From Clostridium sp. CAG:273 (lineage in GTDB: Bacteria > Bacillota > Clostridia > TANB77 > CAG-508), in contig FR901446.1 in NCBI GenBank assembly GCA_000438355.1, forward strand, positions 1 to 39,748: a stretch of 39,748 nt of DNA, read 5' to 3'. How positions within the stretch are numbered: the stretch's first letter is position 1; every line of letters begins with the position of its first letter. Made by a program: the position numbers and the translations under genes. The notes below the pieces were generated by a model that did no database searches, was not told the DNA's origin, and saw only the letters and a list, made by a program, of their open reading frames with translations. Shown piece after piece: positions 2,726 to 30,998 of the stretch.

Positions 2726-3205
2726 GGTACAGAAGAATTGGCACACTTAGAAATGGTTGGAACAATAGTGCATCAATTAACAGAAGGGCTTTGCCCAGAA
2801 GAAATAAAAGCAGCAGGATTAGGTGCATATTATACAGACCATGGGGTAGATGTATATCCACAGTCAGCAGCAGGAGTTCCATTTACAGCAGCATATATTG
2901 CAGCAAAAGGAGATCCTATAGCAAATCTTCAAGAAGATTTAGCAGCAGAACAAAAAGCAAGGGCGACATATGAAAAATTAATTGACTTATGTTGTGACGA
3001 CCCAGATGTTTTAGACCCACTTCGTTTCTTAAGAGAAAGAGAAGTAGTACACTTCCAAAGATTTGGAGAAGCACTTCGTGGAGTACAAGATAAACTAGCA
3101 GAAAAAAGATTTTTTATGAATGATACAAATATGGCTAACATGATGAGTAATAACTGTAATGGATGCAGTGATTGTAATAATGCAAATAATTGTGGATGCA
3201 ATTAG
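2726..3205 (+). pseudogene. cotJC: Manganese catalase / spore coat protein CotJC family, 3' fragment only (about 60 N-terminal residues missing)
   Basis: GTEELAHLEMVGTIVHQL..AAGVPFTAAYIAAKGDPIANLQEDLAAEQKARATYEKLI..LRFLREREVVHFQRFGEAL matches the central and C-terminal parts of CotJC-type Mn catalases. An in-frame TGA at 2714..2716 sits upstream. The only possible start is TTG 2738, which has no SD. The bsh stop is at 2663, so there is no room for the missing N-terminal helix. Confidence 0.8.
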
Positions 3206-7727: not shown

Positions 7728-7991
7728 ATTAATACCTCCAAACATTTGATATACGAACGACTGTTCTAAAACTATAAATATAATACAAAAAAATGTTCGT
7801 GTTGTCAATAGATTTTTTACAAAAATTTTAAAAAAGTTATATATGCTTAGAAACTGTAAGAAAGAAATTGCTAAATATATAAAAATGTAAAATTTATTGC
7901 TAATTTTTAATAATTTAAACTTTAAATAAGTATTATAAATTAAATTGTATAAATGTATTAAAAACAGAAAAAATAATATAGGGTGAATAAA

Positions 7992-8996
7992 ATGTTTATA
8001 CCGAATTTAATTTATTATGAAAAAGATGCATTAAATTATTTGTTAGGAAAAGAATTATTTGATAAATACAATGAAAAGAAAATTAAATTTATAGAGATAG
8101 AAAATCATAATAATATTGAGGAATTACGAACAAAAGAAAATAAAGAATTTGCTAATTTAAAAAGAAATTTAATTATAGGAATAAGAAAAACACATAAATT
8201 TGTTCCTAATTATAAAGTGTCAAATTATTTAGTGCCATATACATCTTCTGGTTGCACAGCAATGTGCTTATATTGCTATTTAGTTTGTAACTATAATAAA
8301 TGTTCATATTTGAGATTATTTGTTAATAGAGAAGAAATGCTTGATAAAATAAAAAGGGTTGCAAATAAAGAAGAAAAAGATTTAGTTTTTGAAATAGGGA
8401 GTAATAGTGATTTAATTTTGGAAAATACAATTACAAATAATTTGGTATGGACGATAGAAGAGTTTAAAAATAATCCAAAAGGATTACTAACATTTCCAAC
8501 TAAATTTGATATGGTAGACCCAATTTTACCATTAAATCATAAAGGAAAAGTAATTGCTAGGATGAGTGTTAACCCGAAAGAAATAATAAGAACAATAGAA
8601 ATAGGAACTTCACCATTGGAAAAGAGAGTACAAGCAATAAATAAACTTGCCGAAGCAGGTTATAAAATAGGTATTTTAATTGCACCTGTAATATTAGTGA
8701 AAAATTGGAAAATACAATATGAAGAATTGTTAAAATTTTTAGAAAATAATTTAAGTGAAAAAGCAAAGAAAAAAATATTTTTTGAAATAATATTTATGAC
8801 ATATAGCTATGTACATCGAATGATAAATAGTGAAGCATTTCCAACACTTGTTAATTTATATAACCAAGATATAATGACAGGTAGAGGAAAAGGAAAGTAT
8901 TGCTACAGACCAGATGTTAGAAAAGAGGCAGAAAAGGATATACTAGAACTTATGCATAGATATTTTCCAAATAATGAGATAAAGTATGTATCATAA
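7992..8996 (+). CDS. splB: Spore photoproduct lyase (radical SAM)
   Basis: MFIPNLIYYEKDALNYLLGKEL.. is co-linear with Bacillus SplB (..FVPQLVYIEPRALEYPLGQEL..). The CTAMCLYCY radical SAM triad, GTSPLEKRVQAINKLAEAGY and the C-terminal FPNNEIKY also fit. ATG 7992 is preferred over GTG 7983, which overlaps the SD (AGGGTGA). Confidence 0.9.
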   Translation: MFIPNLIYYEKDALNYLLGKELFDKYNEKKIKFIEIENHNNIEELRTKENKEFANLKRNLIIGIRKTHKFVPNYKVSNYLVPYTSSGCTAMCLYCYLVCNYNKCSYLRLFVNREEMLDKIKRVANKEEKDLVFEIGSNSDLILENTITNNLVWTIEEFKNNPKGLLTFPTKFDMVDPILPLNHKGKVIARMSVNPKEIIRTIEIGTSPLEKRVQAINKLAEAGYKIGILIAPVILVKNWKIQYEELLKFLENNLSEKAKKKIFFEIIFMTYSYVHRMINSEAFPTLVNLYNQDIMTGRGKGKYCYRPDVRKEAEKDILELMHRYFPNNEIKYVS

Positions 8997-9312: not shown

Positions 9313-9347
9313 GACAGACTATAAATAAAAATAGCCTGTCATTTTTG
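9313..9347 (+). terminator. Intrinsic terminator / attenuator immediately upstream of the RBS of the pilin-like GLUG gene
   Basis: GACAGACTAT (9313..9322) pairs with ATAGCCTGTC (9331..9340), giving 9 bp and one mismatch, with an 8-nt loop. The tail ATTTTTG follows. The SD AAGGAGAGGAG begins about 10 nt later. Confidence 0.5.
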
Positions 9348-9374
9348 CATTTAAAAGAAGGAGAGGAGAACAAT

Positions 9375-12221
9375 ATGGAAGATAAAAAAGGAGATTTACA
9401 AAGTAATGGTGTGCTAAAACAAAACTTATTATTACAAACAAGTAAAAAGATAAACAGAAATCTAAATAAAAAAATAACAAATCAAAGAGGCATTACATTA
9501 TTAGCATTAGTTGTAACAATAGTTATTTTATTAATATTATCAGGAATAACAATAAGCAGTGTATTTGGGGATAATGGAATTATAGAAAAAAGTAAAATTG
9601 CAAAAAACGAAGTAGAAGTAGGAACAGTAAAAGAAGCTCTAAAACTATACTATTTAAGTAATGATATAGGACAAAAGGAACAAGATCCGGTAAATGGATT
9701 AATGCCAAAAGAAGAGATAACAGATGAAACTCTATTAAATATAATAATGGAAAACCAGGCAGGAATAGGAAACATAAAGCAGATAGAATATAGTAGATTA
9801 TATAAACTTGATTTATCAGTATTAGGAATTCCAAATATAGAAGAAAACAAATACTTTATGGATATAGGAACAAAAATAGTCTATATAAATAATGGAATAA
9901 AATTAAGTAAAGGCATAACATATGTATTAGAAGAAAAAGAAATATGGCCAGTATACTTAAGAGCAGAAGAAATAGAAGAAGGATTTAAATTAATAGCAAA
10001 TGTAGAAGATAATACAAATGTTAGAAACTATAACTTTTATATAGGCGAAGAACTATACAAAATAGTTTCAGGAAATGGAACAGAAGCACAAATAAATGTA
10101 ACAGATAAAGATTTTGGAGAATATGAATGTTATGTAAAAGTTAATAGAATGGGAGGAACGAGTGACAGTTCACCAAGCATTGTAGCAGAAAATTATTGTA
10201 TAAAAAATGCAAATGATATGGAAGTATTTAAAAATATGGTAAAAGAGGGAAATACATTTGCGGGAAAAAGAGTAAAGGTAGTAGCAGACATAGACTTAGG
10301 CGGAAGTAAGCAAAATAGAAATTGGGAGCCAATAGGAATAGAAGGAACAAGTTTTTCAGGCACATTAGAAGGAAATAATCATAAAATAAGTAATATATAT
10401 AATAAAGAGGTAAGCGGAAATTATCAAGGACTATTTGGAGTAGCACAAAATGCCACAATACAAAATATAATAATAGAAGGAGGACAAGTTCAAGGAAGGG
10501 AGTTTGTAGGAGGAATAATAGGAAATGGCAAAGGAACAAATATAATAGATTGTGAAAACCATGCACAAATAATAGCCCAAAAAGGAAATGTTGGAGGAAT
10601 AGTAGGAAGAATAGAAGAAAGTGGAAAAGTAGAACAATGTACAAATTATGGAAGTGTTAGTAGTAGTGGATATATAAATGATGTATTAGATACATTTATA
10701 GGAGGAATTATTGGTTCTTCATATAATGACATAATAATAACTGGCTGTATAAATCAAGGAAATATAACAAGTGAATATTCCGCAACAGGGGGAATTATAG
10801 GTGCAGCATTTGGAGATGGCAATAATAGTGTAAATAATTGTGAAAATAAAGGAACAATTCAAGTTACAGGAAAAAACATTAATAATGATGCAACTCTTGG
10901 AGGAGTGTTAGGTTATATTATAAATGGACAAGTAGATAATTGTAAAAATCAAGGAGAAGTAATAGGAGAAGGAAATAAAATCGGAGGAGTAATGGGCATA
11001 GCTGATGGAATAAATTTTGTAAGTTATTGCACAAATATTAATACAGTTACACAAAATAATGGGTTTGAAATAGGCGGAATTATAGGATTAAATAGTTTAG
11101 AGTCAAAAGTTTTTTATTGCACAAATAGTGGACAAATTAATGCAAATAGCTTTGAAGAAGAAACAGGAAATACTATAGCAGGGGGAATTATAGGAAATTC
11201 ACAAGGAACTATTAATGAATGCATAAATAATGGAAATGTGATAGCAAATGGAGCATATGTAGGTGGCATTGCAGGAAACACAATAAGCAGCATTACAAAT
11301 TGTCATAATGAAGGAATTATAACAGTTAAACAAAAGAATTCTGCTAAAAGAGTTTGTGTAGGGGGAATTTCAGGGCAGTTAGATACAGAAATTCTAAAAG
11401 AAGATGCAAAAATAGAAAACTGTTATAATATGGGGAATGTCTATGGAATAGGAATTGATGTAGCAGGAATTACAGCAATAAATATAGGAGGAACAATTAA
11501 AAATTGCTATAATACAGGAAGTGTTACTACCGAAACAGGAGTTGCAGGAGGAATTGTATCAGAATCTTTTAAAACTTCAGATGAAAGACTTCCAGTTATA
11601 GAAAACTGCTATAATACAGGAGCAGTAGAAGCAAAAGGAATAGTTGAGATGGAAGGATATATTGACTCTATTGCAGGAGGAATTGTAGCGGGAAACCATG
11701 GAATTACTAGAAAATGTTGGAACGAAGGTAAAGTTTATGGAATATCGGTAGTAGGAGGAATTGTAGGGACAAGTCTTAAAACAGTAACAGAGTGCTATAA
11801 TTTAGGAACTATAGAATCAAAAGGAAAAAATACCAATGGAGACTCTGTAGTAGGAGGAATTATAGGGAATTTAAACCAAAATGCAGATTTAAGTTATTGT
11901 TATAATAAAGGTATAGTGAGTGCAGACTATAATATGGTAGGAGGAATTGTAGGTTTTCAAGAAGCAAATTCAACAGTAAGTAATTCCTATAATACATTTC
12001 AAGTAGAGCAAAAACAAGAAAGTTCAATGCTAGTAGGAAGAACAGAAGGAACAGCTACTCTGAATAATTGTTATTATTTAGGAACAACTACATCAAATGA
12101 ATCCAGGACAGAAGCAGATATGAAAACACAAGCATTTGTTGATTTACTAGGTGGAAGTACCTATTGGAAATTAGATAGACAAAATCAAAATAATGGATTT
12201 ATTATTTTAAATTGGCAATAA
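9375..12221 (+). CDS. Large surface protein with a type IV pilin-like N-terminal hydrophobic segment and multiple GLUG-motif (GGIxG) repeats
   Basis: ATG 9375 lies behind the AAGGAGAGGAG SD (the track ORF starts at an upstream TTG). The N-terminus ..NQRGITLLALVVTIVILLILSGITISSVFGDNGIIEKSK resembles a prepilin leader plus hydrophobic helix but has Ala, not Glu, at +5. From about residue 380 there are about 20 repeats centred on VGGIIG/IGGIVG/AGGIVA with conserved Cys-x-N spacers (C.N.G), as in GLUG-motif proteins. Confidence 0.8.
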   Translation: MEDKKGDLQSNGVLKQNLLLQTSKKINRNLNKKITNQRGITLLALVVTIVILLILSGITISSVFGDNGIIEKSKIAKNEVEVGTVKEALKLYYLSNDIGQKEQDPVNGLMPKEEITDETLLNIIMENQAGIGNIKQIEYSRLYKLDLSVLGIPNIEENKYFMDIGTKIVYINNGIKLSKGITYVLEEKEIWPVYLRAEEIEEGFKLIANVEDNTNVRNYNFYIGEELYKIVSGNGTEAQINVTDKDFGEYECYVKVNRMGGTSDSSPSIVAENYCIKNANDMEVFKNMVKEGNTFAGKRVKVVADIDLGGSKQNRNWEPIGIEGTSFSGTLEGNNHKISNIYNKEVSGNYQGLFGVAQNATIQNIIIEGGQVQGREFVGGIIGNGKGTNIIDCENHAQIIAQKGNVGGIVGRIEESGKVEQCTNYGSVSSSGYINDVLDTFIGGIIGSSYNDIIITGCINQGNITSEYSATGGIIGAAFGDGNNSVNNCENKGTIQVTGKNINNDATLGGVLGYIINGQVDNCKNQGEVIGEGNKIGGVMGIADGINFVSYCTNINTVTQNNGFEIGGIIGLNSLESKVFYCTNSGQINANSFEEETGNTIAGGIIGNSQGTINECINNGNVIANGAYVGGIAGNTISSITNCHNEGIITVKQKNSAKRVCVGGISGQLDTEILKEDAKIENCYNMGNVYGIGIDVAGITAINIGGTIKNCYNTGSVTTETGVAGGIVSESFKTSDERLPVIENCYNTGAVEAKGIVEMEGYIDSIAGGIVAGNHGITRKCWNEGKVYGISVVGGIVGTSLKTVTECYNLGTIESKGKNTNGDSVVGGIIGNLNQNADLSYCYNKGIVSADYNMVGGIVGFQEANSTVSNSYNTFQVEQKQESSMLVGRTEGTATLNNCYYLGTTTSNESRTEADMKTQAFVDLLGGSTYWKLDRQNQNNGFIILNWQ

Positions 12222-20484: not shown

Positions 20485-22302
20485 ATGATGAAACATAAAA
20501 ATATTTCGATTGTTTTTATTTCATTATTAATCATAGCAATTCTACTAATGATGAGTCCAAGAATGCTAGCATACACAATCCCAGCAGTAGAAAATTTAAA
20601 AGTTGAATATACTGATGGAACAGCAAACTTAAGCTGGTCAAGTGTAACAAATGCTGATGGATATGAAGTTTTTGTTAATATTCCAGGTTATGGTTATGCT
20701 AATATTGGTTCAGTATCTGAAAATAAAGTTTCTGTAATAGGAATTTCAGAAGACACAGCATATTCTGTAAAAGTAAGAGCTTATGAATATGTAAATAACA
20801 TAAAAGAAGTTGGAAACTTTTCTAATGAAGTAGACTTTGATACAAACAAAGAAGCGGATTTAGATAGAGTAACAGGTGTAAAAGTAGAAACAACAGGAAA
20901 TATTGCAAAAGTAGAATGGAATGCTGTTTCAGAAGCAACTGGTTATGAGGTATATGTAGACATACCAAATTATGGATTTTTAAAAATTGGTAATGCAACA
21001 ACAAATTCAGCAGTATTAATGGGATTCCAAACAAATGGAAAATATGCTGTAAAAATAAGAGCTTTTAAAGGAACAAATGGAAAAGATGGTTATGGAGAAT
21101 TTTCGTCATCAAAAACATTTTATATAAATAGTGAAGACCTAGATGATGACAAAAAAGAAGAATTAGACCAAGTTAAAGATTTAGAATATAACTTAGAAAA
21201 AGATAAAGTATATTTAAATTGGTCTAAAGTAAAAGATGCAGACGAATATATTGTTTATATATCAATAAATGGTGGTAACTACAGTGAAATAGGAAGAGTT
21301 ACAGGAAGAGAAGCAACAATAAATGATTTAAGAGAAAATACTACATATAAAGTAAAAATCGCAGCATATAATAAACATGATGATGTTTATGGAAAAGAGT
21401 CTAATGTTATAACTTTTAAAACAGACAAAAGTTTTGAAGAAGAAATAGAATTAGACAAGGTAAGAAATTTATCTGTAGATATAGATGGAAATAGAGCTTA
21501 TTTAGATTGGTCTAAAGTAAAAGATGCAGACAAATATGAAATTTATTTATCTAAAAATGGAAAAGCATATAGTTTAGCAGGAACAGTAACAAAAAATAGT
21601 GCAACAATTTCAGATTTAGACTATAACACATCATATAAAGTAAAAGTAAGAGCATATAATGAAAAATATGATGAATATGGTACATATTCAGACATAAAAA
21701 GTTTTAAAACAGAAGAAGATGACACAATAGAAGTTGGAAAAGTAAAAAATATAGATATAGATGTAAATGGAAACAGAGTAGATTTAGATTGGTCAAAAGT
21801 AACTAATGCAGATGAATATGAAGTTTATTTATCTAAAAATAGTGGATCTTATGACTTAATTGGTACAGTAAAAAATAATAATGCAACAATTTCTAATCTA
21901 TCATATAATACATCATATAAAATAAAAATAAGAGCATATAATAAGAAATATGATGAATATGGTGCGTATTCAGATATAGAAAGCTTTAAAACAGAAAAAT
22001 ATAATAGTAGTATAAACAACGAAGAAGTTGGAAAAGTAAAAAATGTAAATGCAAGTGTAACAGGAAGTACAGTATATTTATCTTGGAAATCTGTGCCAGG
22101 TGCAGTAAAATATGAAATACAATTTACAGTACCAGGATACGGAGGAGCTACATCAATATGGTCAGAAGGACCAGGCAGAACAATTTCTGGATTAACAAAT
22201 AAAACATCAAATTATACAGCAAGAGTAAGAGCATATAAATATGTAGATGGACGTTTAGTGCCAGGAGAATATTCAGATGTAGTTAGATTTAAAGGAAAAT
22301 AA
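20485..22302 (+). CDS. Secreted protein with six tandem fibronectin type III-like domains
   Basis: An N-terminal signal peptide (KHKNISIVFISLLIIAILLMMSPRMLA) is followed by six units of about 94 aa. Each has the pattern ..L.WS.V..A..YE.Y........IG......A.I..L...T.Y.VK.RAY, i.e. an FN3-like W/Y/RAY core. No LPXTG or other anchor is visible. Confidence 0.8.
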   Translation: MMKHKNISIVFISLLIIAILLMMSPRMLAYTIPAVENLKVEYTDGTANLSWSSVTNADGYEVFVNIPGYGYANIGSVSENKVSVIGISEDTAYSVKVRAYEYVNNIKEVGNFSNEVDFDTNKEADLDRVTGVKVETTGNIAKVEWNAVSEATGYEVYVDIPNYGFLKIGNATTNSAVLMGFQTNGKYAVKIRAFKGTNGKDGYGEFSSSKTFYINSEDLDDDKKEELDQVKDLEYNLEKDKVYLNWSKVKDADEYIVYISINGGNYSEIGRVTGREATINDLRENTTYKVKIAAYNKHDDVYGKESNVITFKTDKSFEEEIELDKVRNLSVDIDGNRAYLDWSKVKDADKYEIYLSKNGKAYSLAGTVTKNSATISDLDYNTSYKVKVRAYNEKYDEYGTYSDIKSFKTEEDDTIEVGKVKNIDIDVNGNRVDLDWSKVTNADEYEVYLSKNSGSYDLIGTVKNNNATISNLSYNTSYKIKIRAYNKKYDEYGAYSDIESFKTEKYNSSINNEEVGKVKNVNASVTGSTVYLSWKSVPGAVKYEIQFTVPGYGGATSIWSEGPGRTISGLTNKTSNYTARVRAYKYVDGRLVPGEYSDVVRFKGK

Positions 22303-24339: not shown

Positions 24340-24652
24340 TACTAAAGTTTTAAGACTAATAGGGTTAGCTATGAGGGCTGGTAAAGTAAAATTTGGAAGT
24401 GACAGTTGTATGGAAGCAATTATTCAAAATAAAATTAAAGTATTATTAGTTGCTAAAGACGCATCAGAAAGGACCAAGACAAATTTTAAAAGATTATGCC
24501 ATGATAAAAATATACCAATATATGAGGAATTTGAAGAGTATGATTTAAGTCATGCAATAGGTAAACAAAATAAAGTAATAATAGGAGTATGTGATGATAA
24601 TTTTTCAAAAGAAATTATAAAAATTCTAAGTGGGGGTGAGGTTATTGGATAA
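24329..24652 (+). CDS. ylxQ: L7Ae-family ribosomal-protein-like protein YlxQ
   Basis: [44 protein letters not shown] matches the YlxQ/L7Ae fold family. The position between ylxR and infB is conserved. The TTG start is uncertain. Confidence 0.8.
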
Positions 24653-27608
24653 GGTAAAAATATATGAATTAGCAAAAAAATTAGATATTGCAAGTAAGGA
24701 TTTAGTGAATAAAGCAAAGGAATTAGGGATTGATGTAAATAGTCATTTAAGTTCTATAACTATGGATCAAGCAGAAAAACTGGAAAAGAACCTAAAGGGA
24801 ATAAGCAATAATTCTAATAAGCAAGCAAAAGAAGAGAAAATAAAAAAAGAAGAAAATAAAAAGGAAACTAAGCCTGTTATTATTAGAAGAGAGGTAATTA
24901 TTTCTGACGAAGAAGAACAAAAAAGAGAGGACGAGAAAAGAAAACAAAATAGCAGAAAAGATGTTGGTTTTGTTGAAAGAAAATCTCACCAAGATTACAA
25001 CATAGTATATCGTAATAAGCCACAAAAACCACTTACAGTAAGTGAATTATTTGGCTTGGGCAAAAAGGAAGAGAAAAAAGAAGAACCTCCAAAAAAAGAA
25101 GAAATAAAAAAAGAGGTAAAAGTAGAAGAAAAAACTACAGATGTAAAGAAAGAAATTGTTAAAGAAGAAAGTAAAACTAATGTTGCTACTAATGTAGAGA
25201 CAAAAGCTACAACAGTTGTAAAGGAAAATAAAAATCAAGTAAATAATCAAAATAATAATTATAAGAATAACCAAAATAGCAATTATAAAAATGGTCAAAA
25301 TACAAATAATTATCGCAATAATCAAAGAGAAAATAATTTTCATAATAATACAAATTATCATGGAAATCAAAATAATAACTACAGAAATAATGCTAATGGT
25401 TATCGTGATGGAAATGGACAAAATAGATTTAACAATAGAAACAATCAAAATGGACAAAATAAGTTTGGAAATGGAAATGGTCAAAGACAAAACTTTAACA
25501 AATCACAAAGGCCTTTAGATAGCAAAGGAATAGATAGAAATATTAAAGATATAATGTCAACAGAAATTGTAGAAAAAGAAAATCAAAGAGACTACAATAA
25601 TAGAGCTATCGATAAAGCTAAAAGCAATCGCTATGAAGAAAAAAATAAAAAAGCATCACGCTCTAAAAAAGGTGATTTTGACGAATTTGATAGTGGTAAA
25701 CTAAACAAGTTGAAACAAGAAGACAGACTATCACATATGTTTACAGAACAAGATGGTGGAATGCTAGATTATTACGATTTAACAACTGCTAGAGGAAAGA
25801 GAAATAAGAAAAAAATTCAAAAAGACGAAGAAAGGAATAAACAAAAAATATTTGAATTAAAAGAAATTACTATTCCGGATAATATAACAGTAAAAGATTT
25901 AGCAATAGAATTAAAGAAAACAAGTGGCGAAATTATAAAAAAATTATTTAATTATGGAATAATGGCTACAATTAATAATACTGTAGATTTTGATACAGCT
26001 TATTTAGTAGCAAGTGAATTTGGTGTAACAGCTAAGAAAAAAGAAGAAATAAAAGAAGAAGATATCTTATTTGATGATTCTGAAGATAAGGAAGAAGATT
26101 TAAAACCAAGACCACCAGTTGTTGTTGTTATGGGACACGTTGACCATGGTAAAACATCACTTCTAGATGCTATTAGAAAAACTAATGTTATAGAGGGAGA
26201 AGCAGGTGGAATTACACAACATATAGGTGCTTATAAAGTAAATATAAATGGAAGAGAACTTACTTTCTTAGACACTCCAGGACATGAGGCATTTACAAGT
26301 ATGAGAGCTAGAGGTGCTCAAATTACAGATATAGCAATACTTGTAGTTGCAGCAGATGATGGTGTTATGCCACAAACTATAGAAGCTATTAACCACGCAA
26401 AGGCTGCAGAAATTCCAATTATAGTTGCTGTAAATAAAATAGACTTACCAGGAGCCAATATAGATAGAATTAAACAACAATTAATGGAATATGAACTAGT
26501 ACCAGAAGAATGGGGCGGAGATACAATTTTTGTACCTATTTCTGCAAAAAAACATTTAAACATAGAAAATTTACTAGAAATGGTTTTATTAGTTGCAGAT
26601 ATGAAAGAATTAAAAGCAAATCCTAATAAACAAGCGAAAGGAGCTGTTATAGAAGCAAGATTAGATAAAGCAAAAGGACCTATCGCATCTATGTTAGTAC
26701 AAAGAGGAACTTTAAATATTGGAGATACTATAGTTGTAGGTAAATCTATAGGAAAAATAAGAGCAATGAAAAATGACAAAGGACAAAAGGTAAAAGCAGC
26801 AGGTCCATCTACACCTGTTGAAATCATGGGATTAACAGATGTTCCAGAAGCAGGAGATACTTTCTATGAAGTAAAAGACGAAAAAACAGCTAAACACTTA
26901 ATAGAAAGAAGAAAACGCCAAGAAAGAGAAGAACACTTAAATAATGTAAACAAAGTTACATTAAGTAATGTATTTGAAAAAATGGCAAGTGAAAACTTGA
27001 AACAACTTAATATTATAGTAAAAGCAGATGTACAAGGTACTTCAGAAGCTTTAAAACAATCATTAGAAAAATTATCTAATGATGAAGTAAAGGTAAAAGT
27101 TATACATTATAGTGCAGGAGCTGTTACAGAATCAGATGTACAACTTGCAAAAGCTGCAAAAGCTATTATTATTGCATTTAATGTACGTCCTACATCAACA
27201 GCAAAAGAAATGGGAGAAAGAGAAGAAGTAGAAGTAAAACAATATTCTGTAATATATCAAGCTATTGAAGATGTAGAAGCTGCTATGAAGGGAATGCTAG
27301 ACCCTGTATTTGAAGAAAAAGTTATAGGGGAAGCAGAAGTAAGACAAACATTTAGAGTATCTAGTGTTGGAACAATTGCAGGATGTTTTGTACTTAATGG
27401 AAAAGTAGAAAGAAATGCAGGAGTAAGAGTAATAAGAGAAGATGTTGTTATACATGAAGGAAAACTTGTTTCATTAAAGAGATTTAAAGATGATGTTAAA
27501 GAAGTTACAAAAGGATTTGAATGTGGACTTCAAATAGAAAACTATAATGACCTAAAAGAAGGAGATAAAATAGAAGTTTTTGTACAAGAGCAAGTAAAAC
27601 AAGTATAA
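24645..27608 (+). CDS. infB: Translation initiation factor IF-2 with a long K/E-rich and N/Q/G-rich N-terminal region
   Basis: The N-terminus (M)[20 protein letters not shown] is typical of IF-2. The G domain has [20 protein letters not shown] and NKID. The C-terminal domains are conserved. TTG 24645 lies behind a GGGGGTGAGG SD. The track start at 24630 is probably too early. Confidence 0.95.
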
Positions 27609-29276: not shown

Positions 29277-30203
29277 ATGGATGGAATTATATTAATAAAT
29301 AAAGAAAAAAAATATACATCACATGATGTTGTAGCAAAGGTAAAAAAAATATTAAAAGTAAAAGTGGGACATACTGGAACATTAGACCCTAATGCAACTG
29401 GTATATTACCACTTTTATTAGGCAATGCCACAAAAATTTCAAAATATTTAATAAATCATAATAAAGAATATATTGCAGAATTAAAACTTGGAGTAAAAAC
29501 AGACACTGCAGATGGAGAAGGTAAAGTAATTGCAGAGAAACAAGTTAATTTAGAAGAAATATTTGAAAATATAAATGAAAGTATACAACAAATTTTAAAT
29601 AGTTTTGTAGGAAAGACTTTACAAAAACCCCCAATGTATTCTGCAATTAAAGTAAATGGAAAAAAATTATATGAATATGCAAGAAAAAATGAGAAAGTTG
29701 AAGTAAAATCAAGACAAATCGAAATATATAAAATGGAATTAATTAAATTTGATTTAAAAGAAAATGTAATCAAATTTAAAGTAAGATGCTCAAAAGGTAC
29801 ATATATAAGAACTTTATGTGAAGATATAGCAGAAAAATTAAATACATATGGATACATGAAAGAACTACAAAGAACAGAAGTTGGAGATTTTAAAATAGAA
29901 AACGCAATTACTATAGGTGAATTAGAAGAATTAGTAAATGAAAATAAGTTAAAAGATAAAATAAATGAAGAGACATTAAATATTGTAAATAGTAAAGATA
30001 GGAAGTATTTTATTAAAATTGAAGAATTGTTTATGGACAAAAATATAATCAATTTAGACGAAGACTTATTAAATAAATTTTTAAATGGTGTAATGATTAA
30101 AAATAACAATATTGATGGGATTTATAGAATATATAATAAAAATAATTATATTGGATTAGGAGTTAATAAAAATCAAAAATTAAAAAGAGATGTAATAGCC
30201 TAA
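29277..30203 (+). CDS. truB: tRNA pseudouridine(55) synthase TruB
   Basis: GIILINKEKKYTSHDVVAKVKKIL..KVGHTGTLDPNATGILP includes the catalytic Asp. PPMYSAIKVNGKKLYEYAR and GTYIRTL are also present. Confidence 0.93.
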   Translation: MDGIILINKEKKYTSHDVVAKVKKILKVKVGHTGTLDPNATGILPLLLGNATKISKYLINHNKEYIAELKLGVKTDTADGEGKVIAEKQVNLEEIFENINESIQQILNSFVGKTLQKPPMYSAIKVNGKKLYEYARKNEKVEVKSRQIEIYKMELIKFDLKENVIKFKVRCSKGTYIRTLCEDIAEKLNTYGYMKELQRTEVGDFKIENAITIGELEELVNENKLKDKINEETLNIVNSKDRKYFIKIEELFMDKNIINLDEDLLNKFLNGVMIKNNNIDGIYRIYNKNNYIGLGVNKNQKLKRDVIA

Positions 30204-30333
30204 ATTTAAATATATCATAAAATTAAAATAAAATCAAATAAAGAAAATGCATAAATTATATTCAAATAAGCATAATAAAAAGAGATAAACAAAGATAAAT
30301 TTAAAATTTTAACATAAATAACAAAAAATAAGA

Positions 30334-30362
30334 TTGAAAATAATTTAAATATATGATAATAT
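30334..30362 (+). promoter_or_regulatory. Sigma-A promoter in front of the structured RNA
   Basis: TTGAAA (30334..30339), 17-nt spacer, TGaTAATAT extended -10 (30354..30362). Confidence 0.5.
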
Positions 30363-30393
30363 ATAAATACATTAAGAATAGTAAATTAATATT

Positions 30394-30578
30394 TCCCTGC
30401 GCGGTGCGTGTAGACTGGAATTTTAGAACCAACAAACTTAAAACGGGAGTCCGCCTTTGAATGTGGCGTGTATGCTTGTTATTTTAATGAGAAACCCAGT
30501 AGCATTCAACAAGACACCCACCTGTGAAAACAGGTCCTTAAAATTTCATTCATCTTACGGCTGAGGTGGGGATTTTTT
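30394..30578 (+). ncRNA. Unassigned structured RNA (stand-alone ncRNA or riboswitch-like leader), about 185-210 nt
   Basis: This is a sharp G+C island. By hand count there are about 80 G+C in 30391..30580 against about 21 in the preceding 190 nt. It contains several complementary segments, listed in the findings. It ends in a GC-rich stem plus T6. The + strand is chosen because of the upstream promoter and the T-run. Confidence 0.55.
30517..30578 (+). terminator. Intrinsic terminator closing the structured RNA
   Basis: CCCACCT (30517..30523) pairs with AGGTGGG (30564..30570). The tail GATTTTTT follows. The intervening region is an unusually large 40 nt. Confidence 0.55.
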
Positions 30579-30580
30579 AA

Positions 30581-30609
30581 TTTACTTTTTATGTAAAGTA
30601 TGGTATAAT
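30581..30609 (+). promoter_or_regulatory. Possible second promoter between the RNA terminator and the small ORF
   Basis: TGgTATAAT extended -10 (30601..30609) with a weak -35 TTTACT (30581..30586). This could be chance in AT-rich DNA. Confidence 0.3.
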
Positions 30610-30644
30610 AAATGATATAATAAATTTATAAAGGAGTGCTTACA

Positions 30645-30998
30645 ATGAAATGCATCCAGATGACTAAAGTAGATGACAGCAAAATTCTTACCCAAAGCGT
30701 TATGAAATTCCTTACAAAACAAGTTGCGAAAGAATTTGACAACGCTGAGGCATGCGTAACAAAAGTACGGAAGAAAAGTATTGACACAGTTGATGTTTGG
30801 CAATTAATAAAAGCCAACGACAGCACTTACCATATTGTTTATATTCTTTTAGGATATAACATAAGTAAATGCGAAATGACTGAAGAAGCAATACTAAATT
30901 CTCCTAAAATTTTGGAGCTGCATGAAGTATTACAACCAAGTGAAGTAGACATAGTAAAGTTTTATTTTCAGGAGGTATGCAAAACAAAAATAAAATAG
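30645..30998 (+). CDS. Hypothetical 117-aa protein with atypical codon usage
   Basis: ATG 30645 lies 8 nt behind an AAAGGAG SD. The frame is open to TAG 30996..30998 and a GC-rich terminator follows 11 nt later. C/G-ending and rare codons (GCC AAC GAC AGC ACT TAC CAT at 30813..30833; CGG at 30768) contrast with neighbouring genes. I recognise no motif. Confidence 0.6.
   Translation: MKCIQMTKVDDSKILTQSVMKFLTKQVAKEFDNAEACVTKVRKKSIDTVDVWQLIKANDSTYHIVYILLGYNISKCEMTEEAILNSPKILELHEVLQPSEVDIVKFYFQEVCKTKIK

Follow-up and report, generated by a model that had tools for sequence, protein, structure and literature searches.

A 6S (SsrS) RNA gene between truB and prmC in an uncultured low-G+C Clostridia bacterium

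The 6S (SsrS) RNA is a widespread bacterial small RNA that sequesters RNA polymerase as an open promoter mimic, and among its members structure is usually better conserved than sequence. In E. coli, the 6S gene ssrS is followed immediately by ygfA in the same orientation. At the active site of the holoenzyme carrying the housekeeping sigma factor, 6S RNAs imitate an open promoter, and the synthesis of a product RNA (pRNA) on the 6S template refolds the RNA and frees the enzyme (PMC8876501, PMC9670815, PMC12005410). The pRNA of B. subtilis 6S-1 (bsrA), which belongs to the 6S-1 type of the Firmicutes, starts at C40 (PMC8876501) and reads 5'-GUUCGGUCAAAACUA (PMC12005410); its precursor carries an 11-nt leader, whose removal by RNase J1 leaves function unaffected (PMC10578484). 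The two systems differ in the 3' strand of the central bubble, for which a hairpin in the free RNA has been reported in B. subtilis 6S-1, whereas the strand in E. coli 6S is unstructured when free and forms an extended 9-bp hairpin only after pRNA synthesis (PMC8876501). Outside the family, the Ms1 RNA of Actinobacteria is a structured, polymerase-binding RNA with a 6S-like rod (PMC9130861); it associates with core polymerase rather than with the holoenzyme.

We analysed a 39.7-kb stretch of DNA (hereafter the window) from an uncultured low-G+C Clostridia bacterium, in which a G+C-rich structured RNA is encoded on the + strand at 30391..30576, between truB and prmC. With a probability of roughly 0.96, this element is a 6S (SsrS) RNA gene, and no result spoke against that assignment. 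Comparison of the whole window with all 4227 Rfam families, each at its own gathering threshold, resulted in a single match, to RF00013 (6S/SsrS), with a score of 98.6 bits relative to a gathering score of 46.4 (E = 8.8 × 10−19); the match is untruncated and spans positions 1-187 of the 187-position model. Projecting the Rfam consensus structure onto the window sequence showed canonical bases in 44 of its 51 pairs, and the RNA, with a length of 186-189 nt, folds into a rod composed of a closing stem, a large central bubble and an apical arm. In a permissive scan of 30250..30700 (E ≤ 10) there was no competitive second family, the runner-up being Prevotella-2 with 25 bits against a cut-off of 72. 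Riboswitch, T-box, leader, raiA and ROOL families gave no match either in the window at the gathering threshold or in 30250..30700 at E ≤ 10; the raiA motif, which an earlier note on this DNA had put forward as a class that would also fit, lacks a match even at the permissive local setting. Ms1 likewise differs in this respect, as the RNA described here matches no Rfam family other than 6S.

The earlier note had headlined the element as an orphan RNA, listing 6S RNA among candidates that it could neither confirm nor exclude, and had proposed a search against all Rfam models, in which a confident hit would mark the element as known rather than novel. The search returned exactly such a hit, to 6S RNA, and none to raiA, ROOL or the riboswitch families; the element is therefore of a known kind, which standard Rfam annotation would label, and does not represent an orphan RNA class. 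The outcome is a clean negative, in that an apparent candidate for a new RNA class turns out to be a standard 6S RNA. The gene is real and functional-looking, yet ordinary; at the same time, the truB-6S-prmC locus, together with its conserved promoter and predicted pRNA, is now documented for a poorly sampled lineage of uncultured Clostridia. The features of the locus are collected in Table 1.

Table 1. Coordinates of the features of the 6S locus in the window, with the evidence for each.
Feature	Position	Strand	Evidence
-35 element TTGAAA of the 6S promoter	30334..30339	+	Promoter scan; identical and at fixed spacing in 7/7 copies examined
Extended -10 element TGATAATAT (TG-n-TAATAT)	30354..30362	+	Promoter scan with TG flag; invariant in 7 copies examined
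Predicted 5' leader of the primary transcript, ~20 nt	30369..30390	+	Inferred from -10 position and promoter geometry
6S (SsrS) RNA gene (extent of the Rfam match)	30391..30576	+	RF00013, 98.6 bits; homologues with 95-109 bits at the same spot in relatives
Closing stem, 5' strand (pairs with 30556..30572)	30394..30410	+	Single-sequence fold, consensus fold and Rfam alignment; one compensatory change in L145
Helix on the closing-stem side of the bubble, 5' strand (pairs with 30538..30551)	30413..30426	+	Both folds; invariant in 10/10 aligned copies
Central bubble, 5' strand, 18 nt unpaired	30427..30444	+	Unpaired in the single-sequence, consensus and Rfam structures
Predicted pRNA template start, C43; predicted pRNA 5'-GUUGGUUCUAAAAUU	30433	+	Position and similarity to the B. 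subtilis 6S-1 pRNA
Apical (terminal) arm, including helix UUGAAUGU/GCAUUCAA (30457..30464 with 30502..30509) and apical hairpin (30475..30491)	30445..30519	+	Both folds and Rfam
Central bubble, 3' strand, 18 nt, with hairpin ACCUGU/ACAGGU (30520..30525 with 30530..30535)	30520..30537	+	Pair probabilities 0.995-0.999; consensus fold
3' strands of the P2 helix and closing stem	30538..30572	+	Folds and Rfam alignment
U6 tract directly after the closing stem; likely transcription stop	30573..30578	+	Read from the sequence; T-rich run in all homologues

Structured RNAs in A+T-rich genomes typically have a high G+C content. The window contains 27% G+C overall, and a recount found 20 G+C in 30201..30390 versus 80 in 30391..30580, close to the approximately 21 and 80 of the earlier note, whose quoted sequence strings were all recovered where it had placed them. 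The value of 80 is the maximum for any 190-nt stretch of the window and is reached by 0.05% of such stretches (mean 52 ± 10). A G+C content so sharply above that of the flanks would also fit a dispersed repeat, a MITE or a segment taken up from a donor richer in G+C. We regard such an origin as exceedingly improbable: a self-search of the 39.7-kb window found no second copy of the element, only chance matches of 10-11 nt, the Rfam match is single, the position between truB and prmC is constant across lineages, and a profile built from the 6S alignment finds nothing in unrelated loci. Matches to the core motif CACCCACCTG-N4-8-CAGG among the viral contigs listed were rejected as noise because the same profile finds nothing 6S-like in those loci.

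The folding of the RNA is strand specific, with a free energy of −52.5 kcal/mol on the + strand (z = −2.33; 1 of 200 shuffles as good) and an unremarkable fold on the − strand (z = +0.11). The fold of the single sequence and a consensus fold computed independently from 10 homologues agree on the 6S rod and on the hairpin in the 3' strand of the bubble, and the closing stem has pair probabilities of 0.97-0.99. Two of the helices that had been read by eye are real, namely TTGAATGT/GCATTCAA, which sits in the apical arm (pair probability 0.83-0.99), and ACCTG/CAGGT, which is the 3'-bubble hairpin (0.99). Two others, ACTGG/CCAGT and CGCC/GGCG, have pair probabilities of 0.0 and ~0.01, respectively, and are attributed to chance complementarity because perfect complements of these lengths are abundant in shuffled sequences (~18 of 5 bp and ~70 of 4 bp per sequence). 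This result bears directly on the reading of the element as a structured non-coding RNA of a new, orphan class, possibly with a pseudoknot in which ACTGG/CCAGT crosses TTGAATGT/GCATTCAA. The G+C island, the promoter and the U-tract on which that reading drew are real, and the RNA is strongly conserved; however, the 6S model matches from end to end at twice its gathering score, and ACTGG/CCAGT remains at chance level and appears in neither fold, so that we consider a new class extremely unlikely and reject the pseudoknot and the alternative folds that had been suggested with it.

As a 6S RNA, the element is closest in kind to B. subtilis 6S-1, with which it shares the Rfam family, a length of ~190 nt and the same rod, a likeness judged from the pRNA sequence in the literature and from the Rfam alignment; with E. 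coli 6S it has in common the family and the central bubble, and would share open-promoter mimicry and the role of pRNA template. By homology, the RNA would bind the sigma-A RNA polymerase holoenzyme as an open promoter mimic, and, as is characteristic of the family, would accumulate as growth slows and dampen sigma-A-dependent transcription. When nucleotides return, the polymerase would copy the 5' strand of the bubble, with a predicted start at the C at 30433 and a product RNA of 5'-GUUGGUUCUAAAA...; this pRNA would remain paired with the 6S RNA and open the adjacent helix, upon which the 6S RNA would refold and the polymerase would be released. The predicted pRNA is read off AAUUUUAGAACCAAC, the stretch ending at C43, and by analogy would begin 5'-GUUGGUUC; comparison of the predicted 5'-GUUGGUUCUAAAAUU with the pRNA of B. 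subtilis 6S-1 showed identity at 10 of 15 positions. In its predicted initiation with G, opposite a C, the pRNA resembles that of B. subtilis 6S-1 and differs from that of E. coli, which starts with A at U44.

Constrained folding, in which the template was masked for pRNAs of 9-16 nt, opened the adjacent helix. In the 6S RNAs of B. subtilis and E. coli, this helix, next to the bubble, goes by the names P2 and downstream helix (PMC8876501), and by analogy with those RNAs 30413..30426/30538..30551 is predicted to unwind during pRNA synthesis. No stable 'central bubble collapse helix' was predicted after masking over the same range of pRNA lengths, and the collapse helix of B. subtilis 6S-1 is thus without a predicted counterpart here; the distal 5' bubble, which would form one, is the most variable segment of the RNA. 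The hairpin in the 3' strand of the bubble (CCUG/CAGG), with 5-6 bp, is predicted to be pre-formed in the free RNA, as in B. subtilis 6S-1 and unlike in E. coli 6S. In the folding models, the RNA is thus 6S-1-like in this respect.

Upstream of the RNA, the sequence TTGAAA-17-TAATAT with an upstream TG (30334..30362) matches 9 of 12 consensus positions. Promoter-like sites are common in this A+T-rich window (12 found versus 7.0 ± 2.6 in shuffles), so that the match of a single site is weak when taken alone; nevertheless, because the hexamers are invariant and their distance is constant in seven copies, with the −10 element always ending 28 nt ahead of the Rfam 5' end, a sigma-A-type promoter TTGAAA-17-TGATAATAT ahead of the 6S RNA is credible. 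The promoter sequence read by the earlier note is present where stated and was kept at a constant distance in 7/7 copies. From the position of the −10 element, the primary transcript probably starts near 30369 and carries a leader of ~20 nt, which may be trimmed; a short leader ahead of the mature 5' end would parallel B. subtilis 6S-1 and is plausible, although it would be longer than the 11 nt of that RNA.

At the 3' end, transcription probably terminates through the closing helix together with the U6 tract. The sequence GGUGGGGA (30565..30572) pairs with the 5' end of the RNA (30394..30401) to form the 6S closing stem, and a terminator scan called no classical hairpin terminator at 30517..30578. 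Of the 'GC stem plus T6' that had been described across this interval, the T6 stands, while the stem does not act as a local terminator hairpin: the candidate CCCACC/GGTGGG, uncalled by the scan, has a pair probability of 0.0, and its strand belongs to the closing stem. Also discarded was a 9-bp pairing between leader and trailer that had been spotted by eye (GUAAAUUAA at 30381..30389 with UUAAUUUAC at 30577..30585), which is lost in L137 and L139; its 3' half, UUAAUUUAC, runs into the −35 element of the gene that follows. Judged from its sequence, with its own conserved promoter, U-tract end and strand-specific fold, the element is the stand-alone, structured, non-coding RNA gene on the + strand that the earlier note had described.

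Relatives of the locus were collected from one TruB protein search, which provided a gradient of homologues whose contigs were fetched by exact protein (loci are labelled L). More than 300 assembly blocks contain a TruB protein identical to that of the window, and in six contigs of the same species (L007-L012) the whole intergenic region is 100% identical to that of the window. A full-length 6S RNA with 95-109 bits was found downstream of truB in nine further distinct loci (L133, L134, L135, L137, L139, L141, L143, L145 and L148), providing the homologues whose retrieval had been suggested as a check. Every contig that has the order infB-rbfA-nrnA-truB and covers the region after truB (L133, L134, L135, L137-L145 and L148) carries the 6S RNA within this score range, and the contig of L136 ends 43 nt into it. 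In L146 and L147, with TruB ~60% identical, truB lies in another operon, priA-def-fmt-truB-tsaE, with no gap after truB, and no 6S RNA was found near it. A TruB-based scan of species-representative genomes gave only six matches, all in uncultured Clostridia assembled from metagenomes (TruB identity of 50-59%), and none of these six has a 6S RNA near truB, either at the gathering threshold or at E ≤ 1. The truB-6S synteny is thus kept within the clade and lost in more distant relatives, the same pattern as reported for 6S RNA in lactic acid bacteria (PMC8414754). The genomic context differs from that of B. subtilis 6S-1.

We then compared the conservation of the RNA with that of its surroundings. 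Across 10 aligned 6S copies, the mean column identity was 95%, with identities to the window copy of 87-99%, while truB DNA was 74-81% and the upstream spacer 58-75% identical in five of the six lineages measured (both 94% in the same-species L133); the 6S RNA is much better conserved than its flanks. Outside the same-species copy, the PrmC and TruB proteins were 55-76% identical and NrnA 67-96%; NrnA identities as high as 96% indicate that the clade is less deep than TruB alone suggests. Judged against TruB and PrmC alone, an identity of 87-99% for the 6S RNA seems high. The near-invariance of the RNA over its whole length and its closeness to prmC in some lineages are the mildly unusual traits of an otherwise ordinary gene. 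Extra constraint on this near-invariant RNA beyond polymerase mimicry, for example from a second binding partner or from entry into prmC-whiA by regulated read-through of a weak terminator, is a speculation that we consider unlikely.

The distribution of changes along the RNA follows its predicted anatomy. The block 30407..30436, comprising the predicted pRNA template and the adjacent helix, is invariant in the 10 copies, and includes 30427..30436 of the 5' bubble; the core of the 3'-bubble hairpin (CCUG/CAGG) is also invariant. Variable columns cluster at 30437..30441 and 30444 in the distal 5' bubble, at 30478..30489 in the apical loop, at 30527 and 30530 in the loop of the hairpin, and at both ends of the RNA. 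Scored against the Rfam structure, 86.5% of the alignment cells were paired, versus 35-48% when the 3' partners were slid by 1-3 columns. The same structure showed two compensatory pairs, a number reached by 85 of 500 shuffles, in an alignment in which power to detect covariation is low because the sequences are nearly invariant within the clade (87-99% identical). The consensus fold showed three, namely the change from C30402-G30563 to U-A in L145 and two in the apical hairpin in L141. At the other variable paired positions, one-sided changes keep the pair (G-U to A-U or A-U to G-U), except for a few pairs at helix ends. Covariation within the clade is consistent with the 6S structure but weak; at the level of the family, covariation already enters the covariance-model score, which carries the structural evidence.

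The gene directly downstream in the same orientation, which is ygfA in E. coli, is here prmC or an ORF of 117 aa. The latter (30645..30998, + strand) measures 116-119 aa in relatives, belongs to no Pfam or NCBIfam family, and has alignable homologues in the same slot of L133, L137, L139 and L143, with the blocks LLGYN and INSP shared by eye. The slot between 6S and prmC varies, being occupied by the 117-aa ORF in some lineages and by an unrelated 365-aa ORF in L134 (4578-5675), and empty in L135, L141, L145 and L148. As prmC starts only ~24 nt after the RNA in L145 and ~61-68 nt after it in L135, L141 and L148, transcripts from the 6S promoter could conceivably run on into prmC-whiA. This arrangement, with co-oriented genes closely downstream and some read-through into prmC conceivable, would be in keeping with a cis-regulatory leader or riboswitch for the 117-aa ORF or prmC. 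Such a role is very unlikely, however, in view of the absence of any match to a leader or riboswitch family even at E ≤ 10, the U-tract in which the RNA ends, and a 6S model that accounts for its full length; moreover, the identity of the next gene, be it the 117-aa ORF, the 365-aa ORF or prmC, makes no difference to the RNA, and the 117-aa ORF has a strong promoter of its own (TTTACT-17-TATAAT with TG at 30581..30609, matching 10 of 12 positions), together with the ribosome-binding site AAAGGAG.

In the window, the 6S RNA gene is preceded by rbfA, a DHH/DHHA1 phosphoesterase gene (nrnA-like) and truB, and is followed by the 117-aa ORF, prmC, whiA and hemW. The wider neighbourhood is a housekeeping block, comprising ffh, rimM, trmD, rplS, dnaE, rimP, nusA and infB, then hrcA, grpE, dnaK and dnaJ; no tRNAs were found in the window. 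A spore photoproduct lyase is encoded at 7983..8996 (+; SPL family, 240 bits), and an ORF of 155 aa at 2738..3205 (+) aligns with the Mn_catalase (CotJC-type) profile, 284 positions long, only at 67-197, and represents either a truncated gene or one with a misplaced start or a frameshift. The lyase and the CotJC-like fragment fit the sporulating, Clostridia-like genome that the earlier note had assumed. IF2 (24630..27608, +) is unusually long, with 987-992 aa and ~410 residues ahead of the IF2_N domain, and relatives keep this length (958-987 aa). Two putative surface proteins are encoded within the housekeeping block, one of 958 aa with GLUG motifs (9345..12221, +) and one of 605 aa with fibronectin type III repeats (20485..22302, +).
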